Sequence record: MT682707.1
Strand: one strand, 5' to 3'
Length of the DNA: 39,305 bases
Source of the DNA: Escherichia phage vB_EcoP_SP7
The notes under the pieces are model-generated. The model was not told the origin of the DNA. It saw nothing but the letters and a program-made list of their open reading frames with translations, and did not search any database. Of the stretch, positions 1 through 39,305 are shown piece after piece. How positions within the stretch are numbered: the first letter of the stretch is position 1; every line of letters begins with the position of its first letter. The position numbers and the translations under genes are program-made.

Positions 1-155
1 TGGTAACTTATGGTCTCTGCCAGCATCACGTCACCAACGCCCGGCTTATGGTCAAGACAGGGCAGTTAAACCATGATGCGACTATGCGTCACCTGAAAGC
101 GGTCTATGAGGGGCGCAAGCGCATACACGACAGCTTACACTCTGAGGACAAGTAA
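1..155 (+). CDS. Early ORF in the gene 0.4 position, 5' end wraps around the window junction (ATG = base 39305 + bases 1-2); about 51 aa
   Basis: Frame is open from base 3 to TAA at 153-155; the start codon is reconstituted across the junction and overlaps the gene 0.3 stop (TAG TGA|TGG). Same length as T7 gp0.4 but no clear sequence similarity. Confidence 0.4.
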   Translation, partial: VTYGLCQHHVTNARLMVKTGQLNHDATMRHLKAVYEGRKRIHDSLHSEDK

Positions 156-157
156 AC

Positions 158-283
158 ATGTATCAGATAACTTATAGCAGCGAACAGGCGTTCTATGATG
201 GGTGCTACGAGATGATGAAACGCGGGGCTTGCTACGTAGCTGATCACCATAACCTGACTATAACGCTGAAAGGCGGTTACTAA
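158..283 (+). CDS. Small early ORF (41 aa), hypothetical
   Basis: ATG at 158 immediately after the previous stop; tightly packed early-gene arrangement. Below the ORF-track length cutoff; no recognisable motif. Confidence 0.3.
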   Translation: MYQITYSSEQAFYDGCYEMMKRGACYVADHHNLTITLKGGY

Positions 284-289
284 CTGCGA

Positions 290-646
290 GTGATAGACGA
301 GAGGTCATCGACCGATAGGTGGCCTCAAAGATTACCACTTACATTGATAGGAGTTAACTATGAACATAGGTTACTGGGTATGCTTATCTCCGGTCATCTT
401 TCTGATAGCTTGGGGCCTTCTGGACGCAATAAAGCGAGGGTCATTCTAATGAGCTGGATACTTCTGGTTATCTTCGGCTATGGACTTATCGCCTACGTGC
501 TGATGAGAGACATCAATAAAGCGCGCAAAGTCTATAAATTCAACTATGTAAGTCTGGGGCGCTGGACTGTACGCCAACCTAATGGACGATTCACGCGTAA
601 CTTAGCGAACGTCTGGGATATAGCAACACTTGGGAGCAAACTGTAA
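290..646 (+). CDS. Early hypothetical protein with a hydrophobic segment (start uncertain; internal ATG at 449 gives a 65-aa membrane peptide)
   Basis: Track ORF starting at a GTG; internal ATG at 449 is preceded by GAGGG and encodes a transmembrane-like stretch (SWILLVIFGYGLIAYVLM). A separate 29-aa hydrophobic ORF (360..449) lies upstream in another frame. Confidence 0.35.
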   Translation: MIDERSSTDRWPQRLPLTLIGVNYEHRLLGMLISGHLSDSLGPSGRNKARVILMSWILLVIFGYGLIAYVLMRDINKARKVYKFNYVSLGRWTVRQPNGRFTRNLANVWDIATLGSKL

Positions 647-1038
647 TGAATATGTCAAATCTGGTACACGCAATGGGCTCAATCATATCGCTTCGCACAT
701 TCACTGATAAGAACGGCGTAGAGTGGAAGTACGTTGGCACGGACTCTCGAGGTCGCAACTACTGGGAGAAGACAGGGAGCAAGACCGCTTATGTACATCG
801 CCACTCGTCACACACCGCACGTCAACAGCAGGAGCGGGACAGTGTACTACAGGCACGACTCCGGGCAGAGGGCCATAAGTCTGAGCTGATGTATCTAGCG
901 TATGGTGGACGGCCAATCACCGACGATGGTAAACTTCTGGTCTCAGGCTGGAAGGCGATAGACCAACGGTCAACCATCAAGCACACTACCCATGGTGACT
1001 TCAGCCATCTACACGCTAACCCTCTGATATGCAAGTAA
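646..1038 (+). CDS. Early hypothetical protein (130 aa)
   Basis: ATG overlaps the upstream stop (TAATGA); sits where T7 has gene 0.6/0.7 but has no kinase motifs. Confidence 0.5.
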   Translation: MNMSNLVHAMGSIISLRTFTDKNGVEWKYVGTDSRGRNYWEKTGSKTAYVHRHSSHTARQQQERDSVLQARLRAEGHKSELMYLAYGGRPITDDGKLLVSGWKAIDQRSTIKHTTHGDFSHLHANPLICK

Positions 1039-1135: not shown

Positions 1136-3817
1136 ATGAGCGTCATCTCTATTGACAAACACGACTTCTCTGATGTGTCGAACGCCATTGAGCCGTTTAA
1201 CCTGCTGGCTGACCATTACGGGCAAGACCTTGCAGTTAAACAGCTTCAGCTTGAGCATGAGGCATACACTGAAGGCGAGCGACGTTTCATCAAAAACCTT
1301 GAGCGCCAGACTGAGCGCGGGGAATTGGCAGACAATCAGGTAGCCAAGCCTCTCATGCAGACTCTGGTCCCTAAGATTGCGCAAGCCGTCAAGGAGTGGC
1401 ACGAAGGCGCGGACGGGAAGCTGTCAACTTCTCGCCCTAGCGTAGCGTTCACCATGTTGAGCACTGAAGAGAAGGCCGTCAAGGACCGCTCTCTACGCAT
1501 ATCCTGTGAGTCTGCTGCGGTTATCATACTGAAGGTCATCCTCTCCAAGCTGGTCAAGCCTGAAGGGATACCGATTACACCGATGGCCTCCGCGATAGGT
1601 CGCACACTTGAGGATGAAATCCGCTTCGGTCGCATCCGTGACAAGGAGCAGGAGCACTTCAAGAAGGCGATAGCTGAGAACCTGAACAAGCGCGCCGGGG
1701 CATCCTACAAAAAAGCCTACATGCAAGCGGTTGAGACATCCATGCTGGAGCAAGGACAGCTTGAAGATGCGTGGGGGACTTGGAGTCCGACCGAGGCGGT
1801 ACACGTTGGCATCAAGATGCTTGAGATTGTCATCCAGTCTACGCAACTGGTCGAGCTTAAGCGTTATGGTGCTGGCAATGCAGCGGCTGACGTTGAGATG
1901 GTCCACCTGTCAGACTTCTGGGTCAAGAAGATGGCACAACGTGGATTCAGCCTTGCGGGTATCGCACCAGTCTATCAGCCTTGCGTAGTTCCACCTAAGC
2001 CGTGGACGGGTGTCGTAGGCGGTGGTTACTGGGCTAAAGGTCGCAGACCGTTACCATTGATTCGCTTAGGGTCTAAGTCTGCGGTAGCACGTTACGAAGA
2101 CGTGTACATGCCTGAAGTCTATGACGCTGTGAACATCATCCAGAATACACCTTGGAAAGTTAACAAGAAGGTACTGGACGTGGTGAACATGGTCGAGAAG
2201 CTGAACAACACGCCTATTGATGACATCCCTCAGATGGAACCACTGAAGCCTGAGGACTACGCGGGTGAGACCGAAGAGGACCTCAAGGCATGGAAGAAGG
2301 CTGCTGCTGGTATCTACCGCCGAGAGAAGGCCCGGCAGTCACGCAGATTGTCACTGAGCTTTATCGTTAACCAAGCGAACAAGTTCTCTCAGTTCAAGGC
2401 CATCTGGTTCCCGTACAACATGGACTGGCGCGGTCGCGTCTACGCTGTGCCGATGTTCAACCCTCAGGGTAACGACATGCAGAAGGGTCTCCTGACTCTG
2501 GCAGTCGGCAAGCCCATTGGTGCTGATGGTTTCAAATGGCTGAAGGTCCACGGTGCAAACTGTGCTGGTGTCGATAAAGTCACCTTCGAGGAGCGCATCA
2601 AGTGGGTGGAAGACAACCACGACAACATCATGGCTGCTGCTAAGGCACCGATGGATAGCATTGAGTGGTGGGGCAAGTTAGACTCTCCGTTCTGCTTCCT
2701 TGCGTTCTGCTTCGAGTATGCTGGCGTAATGCACCACGGCCTGTCTTACTCCTGCTCTCTGCCCATAGCGTTCGATGGGTCCTGCTCCGGTATTCAGCAC
2801 TTTAGTGCTATGCTTCGTGACCACATCGGCGGACATGCAGTAAACCTGACGCCTTCCGGTAAGGTCCAAGACATCTACCGCATCGTGTCTGACCGCATTG
2901 AGGAGGAGCTTAAAGTCCTGCTGGTTAATGGCACGGACAACGAGGTGGTCACTCACGAGGACAAGAAAACTGGTGAGATTACCGAACGTCTCAAGCTGGG
3001 TACACGAGAGTTGGCCCGTCAGTGGCTGACTTACGGTATGTCACGCAAGGTCACTAAGCGTTCAGTCATGACTCTGGCCTATGGGTCGAAAGAGTACGGC
3101 TTCGCAGACCAAGTTTACGAGGACATCGTAATGCCTGCGATTGACTCAGGGTCTGGCGCTATGTTCACCGAACCAAGCCAAGCGTCCCGCTTCATGGCTA
3201 AGATGATTTGGGAAGCCGTGAGTGTGACCGTGGTTGCTGCTGTTGACGCGATGAAGTGGCTTCAAGGTGCTGCCAAGCTGCTGGCTGCTGAAGTGAAGGA
3301 CAAAAAGACTGGAGAAATCCTGAAGCCTTGCCTTCCGGTACACTGGGTCACACCTGATGGTTTCCCGGTCTGGCAGGAATACCGCAAGAAGGATACCACT
3401 CGTCTGAATCTGATGTTCTTAGGGTCATTCAACCTTCAGCCTACCGTCAACAAAGGCACGAAGAAGGAGTTGGATAAGCACAAGCAGGAGTCAGGTATTA
3501 GCCCGAACTTCGTCCACTCACAAGATGGTAGCCACCTACGCAAGACTGTAGTCCACACTCACCGCAAGTATGGCGTGATGTCATTCGCAGTGATTCACGA
3601 TAGCTTCGGGACCATCCCGGCTGACGCTGAGTATCTGTTCCGTGGTGTCCGTGAGACGATGGTCGAGACCTACCGAGACAACGATGTGCTGCTTGACTTC
3701 TACGAGCAGTTTGAATACCAACTTCATGAGAGCCAACGCGACAAGCTGCCTGAGCTTCCGAAGAAAGGTAAACTGAATATCGAAGACATCTTGTCTTCAG
3801 ACTTTGCATTCGCTTAA
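1136..3817 (+). CDS. DNA-directed RNA polymerase, single-subunit T7 type (gene 1), 893 aa
   Basis: Collinear with recalled T7 RNAP along its length (e.g. FNLLADHYG, CVVPPKPWTG, FPYNMDWRGRVYAV, HGANCAGVDK, SPFCFLAFCFEYAGV, LPIAFDGSCSGIQHFSAMLRD, SFAVIHDSFGT, C-terminal SDFAFA). Confidence 0.98.
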   Translation: MSVISIDKHDFSDVSNAIEPFNLLADHYGQDLAVKQLQLEHEAYTEGERRFIKNLERQTERGELADNQVAKPLMQTLVPKIAQAVKEWHEGADGKLSTSRPSVAFTMLSTEEKAVKDRSLRISCESAAVIILKVILSKLVKPEGIPITPMASAIGRTLEDEIRFGRIRDKEQEHFKKAIAENLNKRAGASYKKAYMQAVETSMLEQGQLEDAWGTWSPTEAVHVGIKMLEIVIQSTQLVELKRYGAGNAAADVEMVHLSDFWVKKMAQRGFSLAGIAPVYQPCVVPPKPWTGVVGGGYWAKGRRPLPLIRLGSKSAVARYEDVYMPEVYDAVNIIQNTPWKVNKKVLDVVNMVEKLNNTPIDDIPQMEPLKPEDYAGETEEDLKAWKKAAAGIYRREKARQSRRLSLSFIVNQANKFSQFKAIWFPYNMDWRGRVYAVPMFNPQGNDMQKGLLTLAVGKPIGADGFKWLKVHGANCAGVDKVTFEERIKWVEDNHDNIMAAAKAPMDSIEWWGKLDSPFCFLAFCFEYAGVMHHGLSYSCSLPIAFDGSCSGIQHFSAMLRDHIGGHAVNLTPSGKVQDIYRIVSDRIEEELKVLLVNGTDNEVVTHEDKKTGEITERLKLGTRELARQWLTYGMSRKVTKRSVMTLAYGSKEYGFADQVYEDIVMPAIDSGSGAMFTEPSQASRFMAKMIWEAVSVTVVAAVDAMKWLQGAAKLLAAEVKDKKTGEILKPCLPVHWVTPDGFPVWQEYRKKDTTRLNLMFLGSFNLQPTVNKGTKKELDKHKQESGISPNFVHSQDGSHLRKTVVHTHRKYGVMSFAVIHDSFGTIPADAEYLFRGVRETMVETYRDNDVLLDFYEQFEYQLHESQRDKLPELPKKGKLNIEDILSSDFAFA

Positions 3818-20315: not shown

Positions 20316-21359
20316 ATGGCAAACGTTCCGGGTCAGAAAATTGGTACAGACCAAGGTAAAGGCAAATCCAGTTCCGACGCTCTGGCGTTGTTCCTGAAGG
20401 TATTTGCTGGTGAAGTCCTGACCGCATTCACTCGCCGCTCTGTAACTGCTGATAAGCATATTGTCCGTACCATTCAGAACGGTAAGTCTGCTCAGTTCCC
20501 GGTCATGGGTCGCACCTCTGGTGTGTATCTGGCTCCGGGTGAGCGACTGTCCGATAAACGTAAAGGTATCAAACATACCGAGAAAGTGATTACCATTGAT
20601 GGTCTGCTGACTGCCGATGTGATGATTTTCGACATTGAAGACGCGATGAACCACTATGACGTGGCTGGTGAGTATTCCAACCAGTTGGGTGAAGCTCTGG
20701 CTATCGCTGCCGATGGTGCGGTTCTGGCTGAAATGGCTATCCTGTGTAACCTCCCATCCGCATCCAACGAGAACATCGCTGGTCTGGGTACCGCGTCAGT
20801 ACTGGAAGTTGGTAAGAAAGCTGACCTCGACACCCCAGCTAAACTGGGTGAGGCAATCATCGGTCAACTGACCATTGCTCGTGCGAAGCTGACCTCCAAC
20901 TACGTTCCTGCTGGCGACCGTTACTTCTACACTACGCCGGACAACTACTCTGCAATCCTCGCGGCTCTGATGCCGAACGCTGCTAACTATGCTGCGCTGA
21001 TTGACCCAGAGACTGGTAACATCCGTAACGTTATGGGCTTCGTTGTTGTTGAAGTTCCGCATCTGGTTCAGGGTGGTGCTGGTGAGACTCGTGGTGAAGA
21101 TGGTATCTCTATCGCTTCCGGCCAGAAACACGCATTCCCGGCGACTGCTACTGGCGACGTTAAAGTTGCTATGGATAACGTTGTGGGTCTGTTCTCTCAC
21201 CGTTCTGCTGTGGGTACTGTGAAGCTGCGTGATTTGGCGCTGGAACGTGACCGTGACGTCGATGCTCAGGGTGACCTGATTGTTGGTAAGTACGCTATGG
21301 GTCACGGTGGTCTTCGTCCTGAAGCGGCTGGCGCACTGGTTTTCAGCTCAGCGATGTAA
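20316..21359 (+). CDS. Major capsid protein 10A
   Basis: Collinear with recalled T7 gp10A (LALFLKVF.GEVLTAF, KHTEKVITIDGLLTADV, DIEDAMNHYDV, ILAALMPNAANYAALIDPE, SAVGTVKLRDLALER, KYAMGHGGLRPEAAGA). Confidence 0.98.
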   Translation: MANVPGQKIGTDQGKGKSSSDALALFLKVFAGEVLTAFTRRSVTADKHIVRTIQNGKSAQFPVMGRTSGVYLAPGERLSDKRKGIKHTEKVITIDGLLTADVMIFDIEDAMNHYDVAGEYSNQLGEALAIAADGAVLAEMAILCNLPSASNENIAGLGTASVLEVGKKADLDTPAKLGEAIIGQLTIARAKLTSNYVPAGDRYFYTTPDNYSAILAALMPNAANYAALIDPETGNIRNVMGFVVVEVPHLVQGGAGETRGEDGISIASGQKHAFPATATGDVKVAMDNVVGLFSHRSAVGTVKLRDLALERDRDVDAQGDLIVGKYAMGHGGLRPEAAGALVFSSAM

Positions 21360-37780: not shown

Positions 37781-38019
37781 CGCAATCGTGGTAACGATTC
37801 ATGAGCGGAAGACCTAAGGTCAGTACGTGGATAAAGACTCACTCTACTGACCTTAGCTACTGTAGTCAAGGACTTTAGGTAACACCTTAAGAGAAGCTCA
37901 CTTAGGGTCATCCTACTTATTGGTCTATCCTAGTGTCGCCTGACCTACGGTCCTTGACCTACAGTGGCTGTGGCCTACAGTAGTGACGATGAGTTTTGGA
38001 CCAAAAGTTTGAGACCACA

Positions 38020-38218: not shown

Positions 38219-38277
38219 CACTACCTACAGTCTAACTACCTACAGTCTAACTACCTACAGTCTAACTACCTACAGTC
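38219..38277. repeat. 15-bp tandem repeat array (CTACCTACAGTCTAA, about 3.7 copies), with further CCTACAG copies to about 38330
   Basis: Directly visible; analogous to the short repeat arrays flanking the T7 terminal repeat. Confidence 0.85.
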
Positions 38278-38577: not shown

Positions 38578-38606
38578 TTGACAAGAAGTAAGACTTAAAG
38601 TAGTAT
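38578..38606 (+). promoter_or_regulatory. Candidate sigma70 early promoter (A2-like)
   Basis: TTGACA, 17-nt spacer (AGAAGTAAGACTTAAAG), TAGTAT; the upstream GTAGACAGCCTGATAAGTC..CGAAAAACAGG closely matches the recalled T7 early promoter region. Confidence 0.6.
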
Positions 38607-38843: not shown

Positions 38844-38882
38844 CTGGACAAACTCTTAATGTGCGCCGATAGCGACTAACTA

Positions 38883-38914
38883 CAGGGTCTTTGAGTCTAC
38901 ATCTAAAGGCCCTG
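38883..38914 (+). promoter_or_regulatory. Stem-loop upstream of gene 0.3 (R0.3-like candidate RNase III site)
   Basis: CAGGGTCTTT...AAAGGCCCTG inverted repeat about 45 nt upstream of the ocr start. Confidence 0.45.
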
Positions 38915-38960
38915 ACTGATAGTCACTAACATACACAAACAACTTTGAGAGGATATAGCT

Positions 38961-39302
38961 ATGGAACGTAACGCTAACGCATACTATGAGCTGCTGGCTG
39001 CAACTGTTGAAGCATTTAACGAGAGCATTCAGCATGACGAAATAGCTGAAGGTGACGACTACAGCGATGCGCTGCACGAAGTCGTAGAAGGTATGGTTCC
39101 GCATTATTACCACGAGATTTTCACGGTGATGGCTGCTGATGGTATTGACCACGAGTTCGAAGACTCTGGGCTGATGCCTGAGACCAAGGACGTAACGCGT
39201 ATACTACAAGCCCGAATCTATGAGGCGCTTTATAACGACGTGTCTAATAGCTCGGATGTGGTCTGGTTTGAGGATGAAGAGAACGACGAAGAGGACTGCT
39301 AG
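38961..39302 (+). CDS. ocr: Ocr-like DNA mimic, anti-restriction protein (gene 0.3)
   Basis: [43 protein letters not shown] closely matches recalled T7 Ocr; acidic C-terminus; first early gene downstream of the host-type promoters. Confidence 0.9.
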
Positions 39303-39305
39303 TGA

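Follow-up and report, generated by a model that had tools for sequence, protein, structure and literature searches.

The window, that is, the whole stretch of 39,305 nucleotides analysed here, is a circularly permuted Kayfunavirus genome, and for this reason ocr, the first of the early genes, is found at its far end (38961-39302). All the features described below, ocr included, lie on the plus strand. Bases 1-1135 are matched by 212 GenBank phage records, nearly all of them Kayfunavirus (K1F-like Studiervirinae), the top match being Escherichia phage P762 with 92.8% identity at 100% query coverage. The product of ocr, a DNA mimic of the gene 0.3 type with a length of 113 aa, is recognised by the Pfam ocr family (PF08684; E = 1.3e-30, 106.3 bits against a gathering cut-off of 25) and by phrog_2568 (3.6e-52), and is 60% identical to the T7 protein. 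A preliminary description of this DNA had placed ocr within bases 1-1038; the gene is indeed present, though outside that interval. The next gene, which codes for a 51-aa protein assigned below to the gp0.4 family, crosses the junction of the window: its start codon ATG takes its A from base 39305, and the rest of the gene occupies bases 1-155. When the two ends are rejoined, the protein begins with MVTYGLCQHH..., an N-terminus that is identical in every relative with a record running uninterrupted through this point. Therefore, the junction is real and the 51-aa reading frame is complete.

From ocr to gene 1, about 1.1 kb of DNA is filled with small co-oriented reading frames, including two for membrane peptides (hydropathy maxima of 2.04 and 2.31), as the preliminary description had stated, and its inventory of 51, 41, 29, 65 and 130 aa is correct. 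The overlapping start and stop codons that it reported are found at two of the junctions only. Specifically, an overlapping TAATG joins the 29-aa to the 65-aa frame and the 65-aa to the 130-aa frame, while 2 nt lie between ocr and the 51-aa frame and again between the 51-aa and 41-aa frames, and the 41-aa and 29-aa genes are separated by a gap of 76 nt (284-359) that contains a hairpin. Each of the frames has a Shine-Dalgarno-like motif at its start, and neither a sigma-70 promoter nor an intrinsic terminator could be convincingly placed inside bases 1-1200. The right boundary of the region is gene 1 (1136-3817 in the list of open reading frames), which encodes a T7-type single-subunit RNA polymerase of 893 aa, with 98-100% identity to the N-termini of Kayfunavirus RNA polymerases. 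Upstream of it, a promoter-match scan locates a promoter for the phage RNA polymerase, TTAACTATCACTATAGGAC, at 1046-1064. Its conserved ACTATCACTATAGG core starts 87 nt before the start codon of gene 1, and the window contains 11 matches to this type of promoter where chance would give 0.01. A promoter is kept before gene 1, at -87 or -93, in 26 of 28 related loci, and it changes together with the promoter type.

To evaluate the coding status of the five small frames, a set of about 28 early regions was compared, comprising those of the GenBank phages Peacock, vB_VIPECLMC06, P762, JSS1 and K1F as well as the IMG/VR loci L021-L044. Across these loci the lengths of all five frames are kept and variation falls mostly on third codon positions; in the 29-aa frame, for example, 28 of 29 third positions are variable versus 9 of 29 second positions. 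The pooled dN/dS amounts to 0.23, 0.12, 0.16, 0.27 and 0.29 for the 51-, 41-, 29-, 65- and 130-aa frames, respectively. On the basis of conserved lengths, third-position variation and dN/dS, the five frames are genes under purifying selection rather than chance ORFs. The opposite view, according to which some or all of them, and particularly the 29-aa and 41-aa frames, would be fortuitous ORFs in a non-coding leader, has a very slight probability in our estimate. It draws on their very short size, on the several GenBank records in which they are not annotated, and on the scans of the ORFs and of the region with Pfam, NCBIfam and Rfam, which returned nothing beyond ocr, with no Pfam or NCBIfam match for the small ORFs. 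However, the lengths do not vary even across diverged relatives, the two shortest frames combine third-position-dominated variation with dN/dS values of 0.12-0.16, and Shine-Dalgarno motifs and TAATG coupling accompany the small ORFs. The preliminary description had named a comparative analysis showing the ORFs to be non-coding as one finding that would overturn it; the dN/dS values of 0.12-0.29 over about 28 loci show the contrary.

Other readings of the same DNA were considered and rejected. A GTG-initiated frame of 118 aa can be drawn over 290-646, but its upstream part runs across the 29-aa gene as well as the hairpin, and the ATG at 449 is conserved in relatives. As for the ORFs of the minus strand, the substitution pattern tracks the plus-strand frames.

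The 41-aa gene (158-283) codes for a conserved, soluble early protein of invariant length, which has the lowest dN/dS of the five. The protein occurs in 109 GenBank phage records, where it is annotated as hypothetical in every case, and a homologue with 41% identity is found in L047, a distant locus that bears a kinase gene. No family or structure match was obtained for it in Pfam, in NCBIfam or in a profile search of the PDB.

Beyond the 76-nt gap, three genes are translationally coupled, and the first of them (360-449) encodes a peptide of 29 aa preceded by AGGAG at a distance of 8 nt. In 19 of 20 loci its length is the same 29 aa, with two allelic types, and its Kyte-Doolittle maximum over 17 residues reaches 2.04, so as to give one predicted transmembrane segment and the profile of a single-pass membrane peptide. 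In relation to T7, this peptide is the positional analogue of gp0.5, with which it has in common the position after R0.5 and hydrophobicity only; a search with T7 gp0.5 as query revealed no sequence similarity, and the two belong to different PHROGs. In K1F and JSS1, the same slot is taken by other small membrane ORFs.

The second gene of the trio (449-646) encodes a protein of 65 aa, made up of an N-terminal transmembrane anchor (one predicted segment, hydropathy maximum 2.31 at residues 3-19) and a nearly invariant basic C-terminal part. BLASTP aligns it with T3 gp0.6 at 38% identity (E = 1e-9), its identity to the product of K1F 'gene 0.6' is 85%, and it matches phrog_2385 with 4.2e-30, so that the protein can be assigned by similarity to the T3 gp0.6 family. 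This family extends over 620 phage records across the Studiervirinae, all of them annotated as hypothetical. Most likely, the 29-aa and the 65-aa products are both inner-membrane proteins.

The last of the coupled genes (646-1038) encodes a protein of 130 aa of the EcoDS1 gp0.38 family (phrog_7066, 1e-44), whose match in BFVD is EcoDS1 Gp0.38 with 95% identity. Its conserved core is formed by the C-terminal 84 aa, preceded by an N-terminal extension that is variable and gives rise to forms of 130, 108 and 86 aa. The full-length AlphaFold model is poor (pLDDT 53) and was left out of the fold search, whereas the 84-aa core is modelled as three helices with a pLDDT of 77.5; the protein is most likely a small helical one. 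Structure searches and PDB profile searches gave no fold or PDB relatives. The tail of the family is nearly invariant, ending in ...HTTHGDFSHLHANPLICK and modelled with low confidence. This C-terminal peptide, HTTxGDFSHLHANPLICK in the family, probably docks onto a host factor. The 137 homologues are located, every one, on phage-sized contigs, and an exhaustive profile search over 1.84 billion representative proteins retrieved only 13 clusters, which points to a narrow, genus-restricted family. A full-text peptide search of the literature, together with an accessory-gene screen preprint, yielded no functional data on the 41-, 29-, 65- and 130-aa proteins. A speculative proposal, to which we give little credit, is that the gp0.38-family protein and the two coupled membrane proteins upstream of it make up a new module for host takeover or anti-defence. 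If true, the 29/65/130 module could help to explain why the majority of Kayfunaviruses get by with no T7 kinase.

The gap between the 41-aa and 29-aa genes harbours, at 288-340, a hairpin of the R0.5 type, that is, a putative site of processing by RNase III. The fold has an energy of -27.3 kcal/mol (z = -3.7), and the element aligns with the annotated R0.5 stem-loop of T3 and with the R0.5 region of T7, with 26 invariant columns. Moreover, the upper stem counts 9 pairs, 3 of which show compensatory changes among the ten copies compared. By fold, alignment and covariation the hairpin is a homologue of the R0.5 site, and RNase III would cleave there. A second hairpin, at 38876-38927 upstream of ocr, would correspond to the R0.3 type and belong to the same hairpin family (CTACAGGGTC...GGCCCTGACTGATAGTCAC); it emerges from the fold of a single sequence (z = -1.84), and its placement in this family, for which the likeness to upstream-type copies was judged by eye, is the weakest part of this account. 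The fold of the spacer upstream of gene 1 (1030-1140) is not stable (z = 0.31) and gives no hint of an R1-type hairpin. Upstream of ocr, a consensus scan places the best sigma-70-type promoter-like site, TTGACA-17-TAGTAT, at 38578-38606 (10 of 12 matches), and this can be proposed as a candidate A-type early promoter.

We read the region, with a probability of roughly 85%, as the early (class I) operon of a phage of the K1F type. Following what is established for T7 and T3, the host RNA polymerase would transcribe the operon from promoters upstream of ocr, and RNase III would then cut the early transcript at the R0.3- and R0.5-type hairpins. The cleavage would generate one group of cistrons with ocr, the gp0.4-like gene and the 41-aa gene, and a second, translationally coupled group with the 29-aa, gp0.6-like and gp0.38-like genes, after which the phage promoter and then gene 1 would follow.

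The preliminary description had also remarked on the lack of a 0.7-type kinase, and here it is borne out. A tblastn search of the whole window with T7 gp0.7 found no kinase (best E = 0.63), and the full-length query, residues 243-359 included, produced no match in the window for the C-terminal basic shutoff/DNA-binding domain either. In addition, a profile was built from the kinases of T7, T3 and 8 Kayfunaviruses and run with hmmsearch --max against 863 six-frame stop-to-stop pieces, among all of which the best hit had an E-value of 2.1 and 3.5 bits, with a positive control at 3e-93. The 130-aa protein compared with gp0.7 by BLASTP gives E = 0.36, and no remnant of a kinase was found in the window. 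A kinase homologue elsewhere in the genome, which the preliminary description had named as one finding that would overturn it, is thus missing from both searches of the whole window. The T7-type kinase (phrog_2828 / phrog_15752) is absent from this genome, and this is the majority state in the genus, K1F included.

Since the window boundary falls inside the early region, between ocr and the next gene, an artefact of assembly or of the position of the cut might be suspected behind the missing kinase; we hold the chance of this to be negligible. The rejoined ends restore an intact ATG and the MVTYGLC... N-terminus as in contiguous relatives, the slot in which relatives carry the kinase (284-359) is internal to the window and away from the junction, and kinase-less members of the genus typically have genomes of the length seen here, 39,305 bp.

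The kinase gene is found in 9 of 28 related loci, each time between the 41-aa and the 29-aa genes. In GenBank, about 47 records carry a kinase of the Kayfunavirus type (at least 60% identity) versus about 208 with a gp0.6 of the Kayfunavirus type (at least 80% identity); about three quarters of the genus are without the kinase. The Kayfunavirus kinase is a protein of 244 aa (phrog_15752) with 31% identity to the N-terminal part of T7 gp0.7. In contrast to T7 gp0.7, it consists of the kinase domain only, corresponding to about residues 6-222 of the T7 protein, and has no shutoff/DNA-binding domain. The 244-aa kinase of Enterobacter phage vB_VIPECLMC06 represents the genus's version of the T7 kinase (T7K) and marks the slot that is empty in the window. 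In four loci (L003, L036, L037 and L043) a hairpin copy stands on either side of the kinase gene, while the window, whose gap 284-359 corresponds to the kinase slot of relatives, keeps one copy. The hairpin copies that bound the kinase gene indicate, therefore, that the early region is built of cassettes of a hairpin, a ribosome-binding site and one or more genes, and the kinase is an optional cassette of the genus, formed by a hairpin and the 244-aa kinase-only gene. Probably, recombination between hairpin copies generated the polymorphism of kinase presence and absence. Cassettes of early genes set between repeats of the RNase III hairpin suggest that such genes could be shuffled simply by recombination, and Kayfunaviruses that lack the kinase or possess its kinase-only version offer a natural comparison set for the question of what a phage gains from the kinase.

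The kinase status does correlate with the left-hand module: in most kinase-bearing Kayfunaviruses, ocr and gp0.4 are replaced by a homologue of the T3-type 0.3 gene. Papers on a 'JSS1_004' kinase, reached by way of the close relative phage JSS1, were set aside, the early region of KX689784.2 being without a kinase.

The preliminary description had presented the small ORFs as standing in the place of the kinase, and this part of it does not hold. One could argue that the small ORFs, and especially the coupled trio of 29, 65 and 130 aa, act as functional substitutes for the kinase in the form of anti-defence or host-shutoff effectors, an idea that we judge unlikely. T7K is a broad anti-defence factor (PMC13645617), and kinase-less phages might consequently need other counter-defences; furthermore, the 130-aa family is restricted to the genus and its gene immediately precedes gene 1, in the slot occupied in T7 by gene 0.7. 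However, kinase-bearing Kayfunaviruses (L003, L034-L044) possess all of the 41-, 29-, 65- and 130-aa genes as well, and homologues of the 51-, 41- and 65-aa proteins occur alongside a full-length kinase in L047. The RNA polymerase of this latter locus is 44% identical to that of the window over the N-terminal region, and the locus carries a homologue of the T3-type 0.3 gene (SAM hydrolase), gp0.4-like, 41-aa-like and gp0.6-like genes, and a kinase of 384 aa. In a comparison prompted by PMC13645617, the Ser/Thr/Tyr content of the orthologues does not differ between kinase-bearing and kinase-less genomes. Four of the small genes coexist with the kinase in Kayfunaviruses, and the small ORFs are not its replacements; they are counterparts of the 0.4-0.6 genes of T7 and T3.

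The statement that none of the early ORFs could be recognised proved too pessimistic, as the 51-aa and 65-aa proteins are relatives of T7 gp0.4 and T3 gp0.6, respectively. Of the profile and structure searches that had been recommended, the profile searches did recognise the gp0.4 and gp0.6 families, while the 130-aa protein came out without fold relatives. As regards the 51-aa protein, its identity to T7 gp0.4 is 39% over 41 aa, and it is the best tblastn match of gp0.4 in the window. The PHROGs of the two proteins, phrog_5058 and phrog_7202, cross-match reciprocally (2.8e-5 and 9e-5), and hhalign of the 51-aa family against the T7 gp0.4 family gives a probability of 91.5% (E = 8.8e-7). A precomputed tag, PF26807.1, is carried by all 91 K1F-type and 43 T7-type homologues. 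The arrangement is also alike, with the ATG 2 nt past the ocr stop codon here as for gp0.4 in T7. A profile search of the PDB with the 51-aa family retrieved nothing meaningful. On these similarities, the 51-aa protein is a divergent homologue of T7 gp0.4.

T7 Gp0.4 binds FtsZ and blocks its polymerisation, and residues W28 and L35 are required for this activity (PMC13423816); its identification as an inhibitor of FtsZ polymerisation goes back to Kiro et al. 2013 (cited in PMC9372555). During infection by K1F, mislocalisation of FtsZ, filamentation and multi-ring filaments are observed; the paper that describes them says that K1F 'lacks the 0.4 genes' and calls the responsible FtsZ inhibitor unknown (PMC9372555). 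The candidate 51-aa protein has in common with T7 Gp0.4 its length, its position, the profile homology, the YGL motif, Leu32 (T7 L35) and Tyr36 (T7 Y39), and Leu32 is invariant in the K1F-type family. It differs from it in that the identity is only about 35-39% and in that T7 W28 is replaced, in the family alignment, by a histidine (His25), a point against its acting on FtsZ. By analogy with T7 gp0.4, binding to FtsZ and a block of cell division are the most likely activity of the 51-aa protein. In our view, the gp0.4-like protein of 51 aa is somewhat favoured as K1F's 'unknown' inhibitor of FtsZ, and this is likelier than the reading of the coupled trio as an anti-defence module. According to the literature, K1F blocks FtsZ and yet 'lacks 0.4', and naming the gene of 49-51 aa as a divergent gp0.4 makes the question testable. 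Of the general expectation that early genes of this class hit host defences or cell division, the cell-division part finds a candidate in one ORF, the 51-aa gp0.4-family gene.

With respect to known systems, the region resembles T7 in two main traits: a gene of the gp0.4 family, of 51 aa, comes right after ocr, and an R0.5 site is followed by the gene of a small hydrophobic peptide and by overlapping small genes before gene 1. The phage described here differs from T7 in lacking the 0.7 kinase/shutoff gene and in having the additional 41-aa gene and the genus-specific 130-aa gene. Moreover, the sequences of T7 gp0.5 and gp0.6A are unrelated to those of the 29-aa and 65-aa proteins, and upstream of gene 1 a phage promoter is found here in a spacer whose fold suggests no R1-type hairpin. 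As to T3, its gp0.6 shares with the 65-aa protein the length of 65 aa, the N-terminal hydrophobic segment, the R(F/W)TVR(E/Q)(R/P)NGRF motif and the location downstream of R0.5. In T3, however, the gp0.6 gene comes directly after R0.5 and is followed by 0.65 and by the kinase, whereas here the 29-aa gene precedes the 65-aa gene and the gp0.38-like gene follows it.

The closest parallels are within the genus itself, and the arrangement was already known: a layout with ocr and no kinase entered GenBank as early as K1F. The layout is no peculiarity of this genome but standard for the genus; it is present in K1F, and the same five ORFs are annotated in relatives deposited in GenBank. The Kayfunavirus order consists of ocr, an ORF of 49-51 aa, an optional ORF of 41 aa, the hairpin, a small membrane ORF, the 65-aa 'gene 0.6', the gp0.38-like gene, the phage promoter and gene 1. 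K1F has ocr, a 49-aa ORF, a membrane ORF of 55 aa, 'gene 0.6' and gene 1, likewise without a kinase. It departs from the window in that the 55-aa ORF, with two helices, replaces the 29-aa peptide, in that the 41-aa gene is absent, and in that its gp0.38-like ORF contains an internal stop and is not annotated. Overall, K1F, Peacock (MK903279) and P762 (MW876471) share with the window a layout that dispenses with the kinase, at 88-93% nucleotide identity over the region.

Members of the genus Kayfunavirus carry two alternative left-hand modules in the early region, and the module present is correlated with the presence of the gp0.7-type kinase gene. Most kinase-bearing Kayfunaviruses (loci L034-L043 of the comparison) lack both ocr and the gp0.4-like gene, and their early region opens instead with a 150-aa ORF (MIYTNEPAN..., for example at 829-1281 of L037), a putative homologue of the T3 0.3 SAM hydrolase. 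The correlation has exceptions, represented by two further early-region loci, L003 and L044.

A trace of the kinase gene itself is found in Salmonella phage ST15 (OQ860983.1), where positions 20738-20848 contain only the last ~38 codons of a Kayfunavirus-type kinase, with 86.8% identity, adjoining a SAM hydrolase gene. This fragment appears to be a deletion remnant and indicates that the kinase was lost in at least one lineage. Escherichia phage JSS1 requires a separate comment. The early region of record KX689784.2 contains no kinase gene and reads ocr, 49-aa, 81-aa, 65-aa and 130-aa ORFs, gene 1, whereas in published papers 'JSS1_004' of 'phage JSS1' is described as a gp0.7-like kinase. This mismatch between record and papers points to either a name clash or a different isolate.

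The small ORFs vary among relatives as well. In the K1F reference genome (NC_007456), an unannotated homologue of the conserved core of the 130-aa protein, at 2208-2468, is interrupted by an in-frame stop (MKTVYINRPSIR*QCR...), and would be either a pseudogene or the product of a sequencing error. In another related locus, L032, a deletion has joined the 29-aa gene to the 65-aa gene, and the resulting 47-aa chimera (2600-2743) combines the N-terminal transmembrane segment of the 29-aa peptide with the last 19 residues of the 65-aa protein.

Upstream of ocr, the window carries further non-coding elements. Specifically, a hairpin of the R0.5-type family lies just 5′ of ocr (38876-38927), in the position of R0.3, and is similar, in an alignment inspected by eye, to the copies found 5′ of the kinase gene in relatives. 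A perfect tandem repeat, made of 3.9 copies of the 15-bp unit ACTACCTACAGTCTA, occupies non-coding positions 38220-38277, 5′ of the early promoters, and a second, weaker repeat with a 17-bp unit is found at 37900-37932.

At the other end of the early region, a phage-RNA-polymerase promoter is located at 1046-1064, with the conserved core ACTATCACTATAGG starting 87 nt 5′ of the gene 1 start codon. A promoter at -87/-93 is kept in 26 of the 28 related loci, and its sequence covaries with the type of promoter that each lineage has, being ACTATCACTATAGG, ACTATCACTAAAGG or ACCCTCACTATAGG. This conservation, together with the concerted change, suggests a positive feedback on polymerase synthesis. 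A search for a stable fold in the same spacer of the window found none. T7 and T3 differ here: their spacer before gene 1 holds the R1 hairpin together with an E. coli promoter, where the window has a phage promoter instead.
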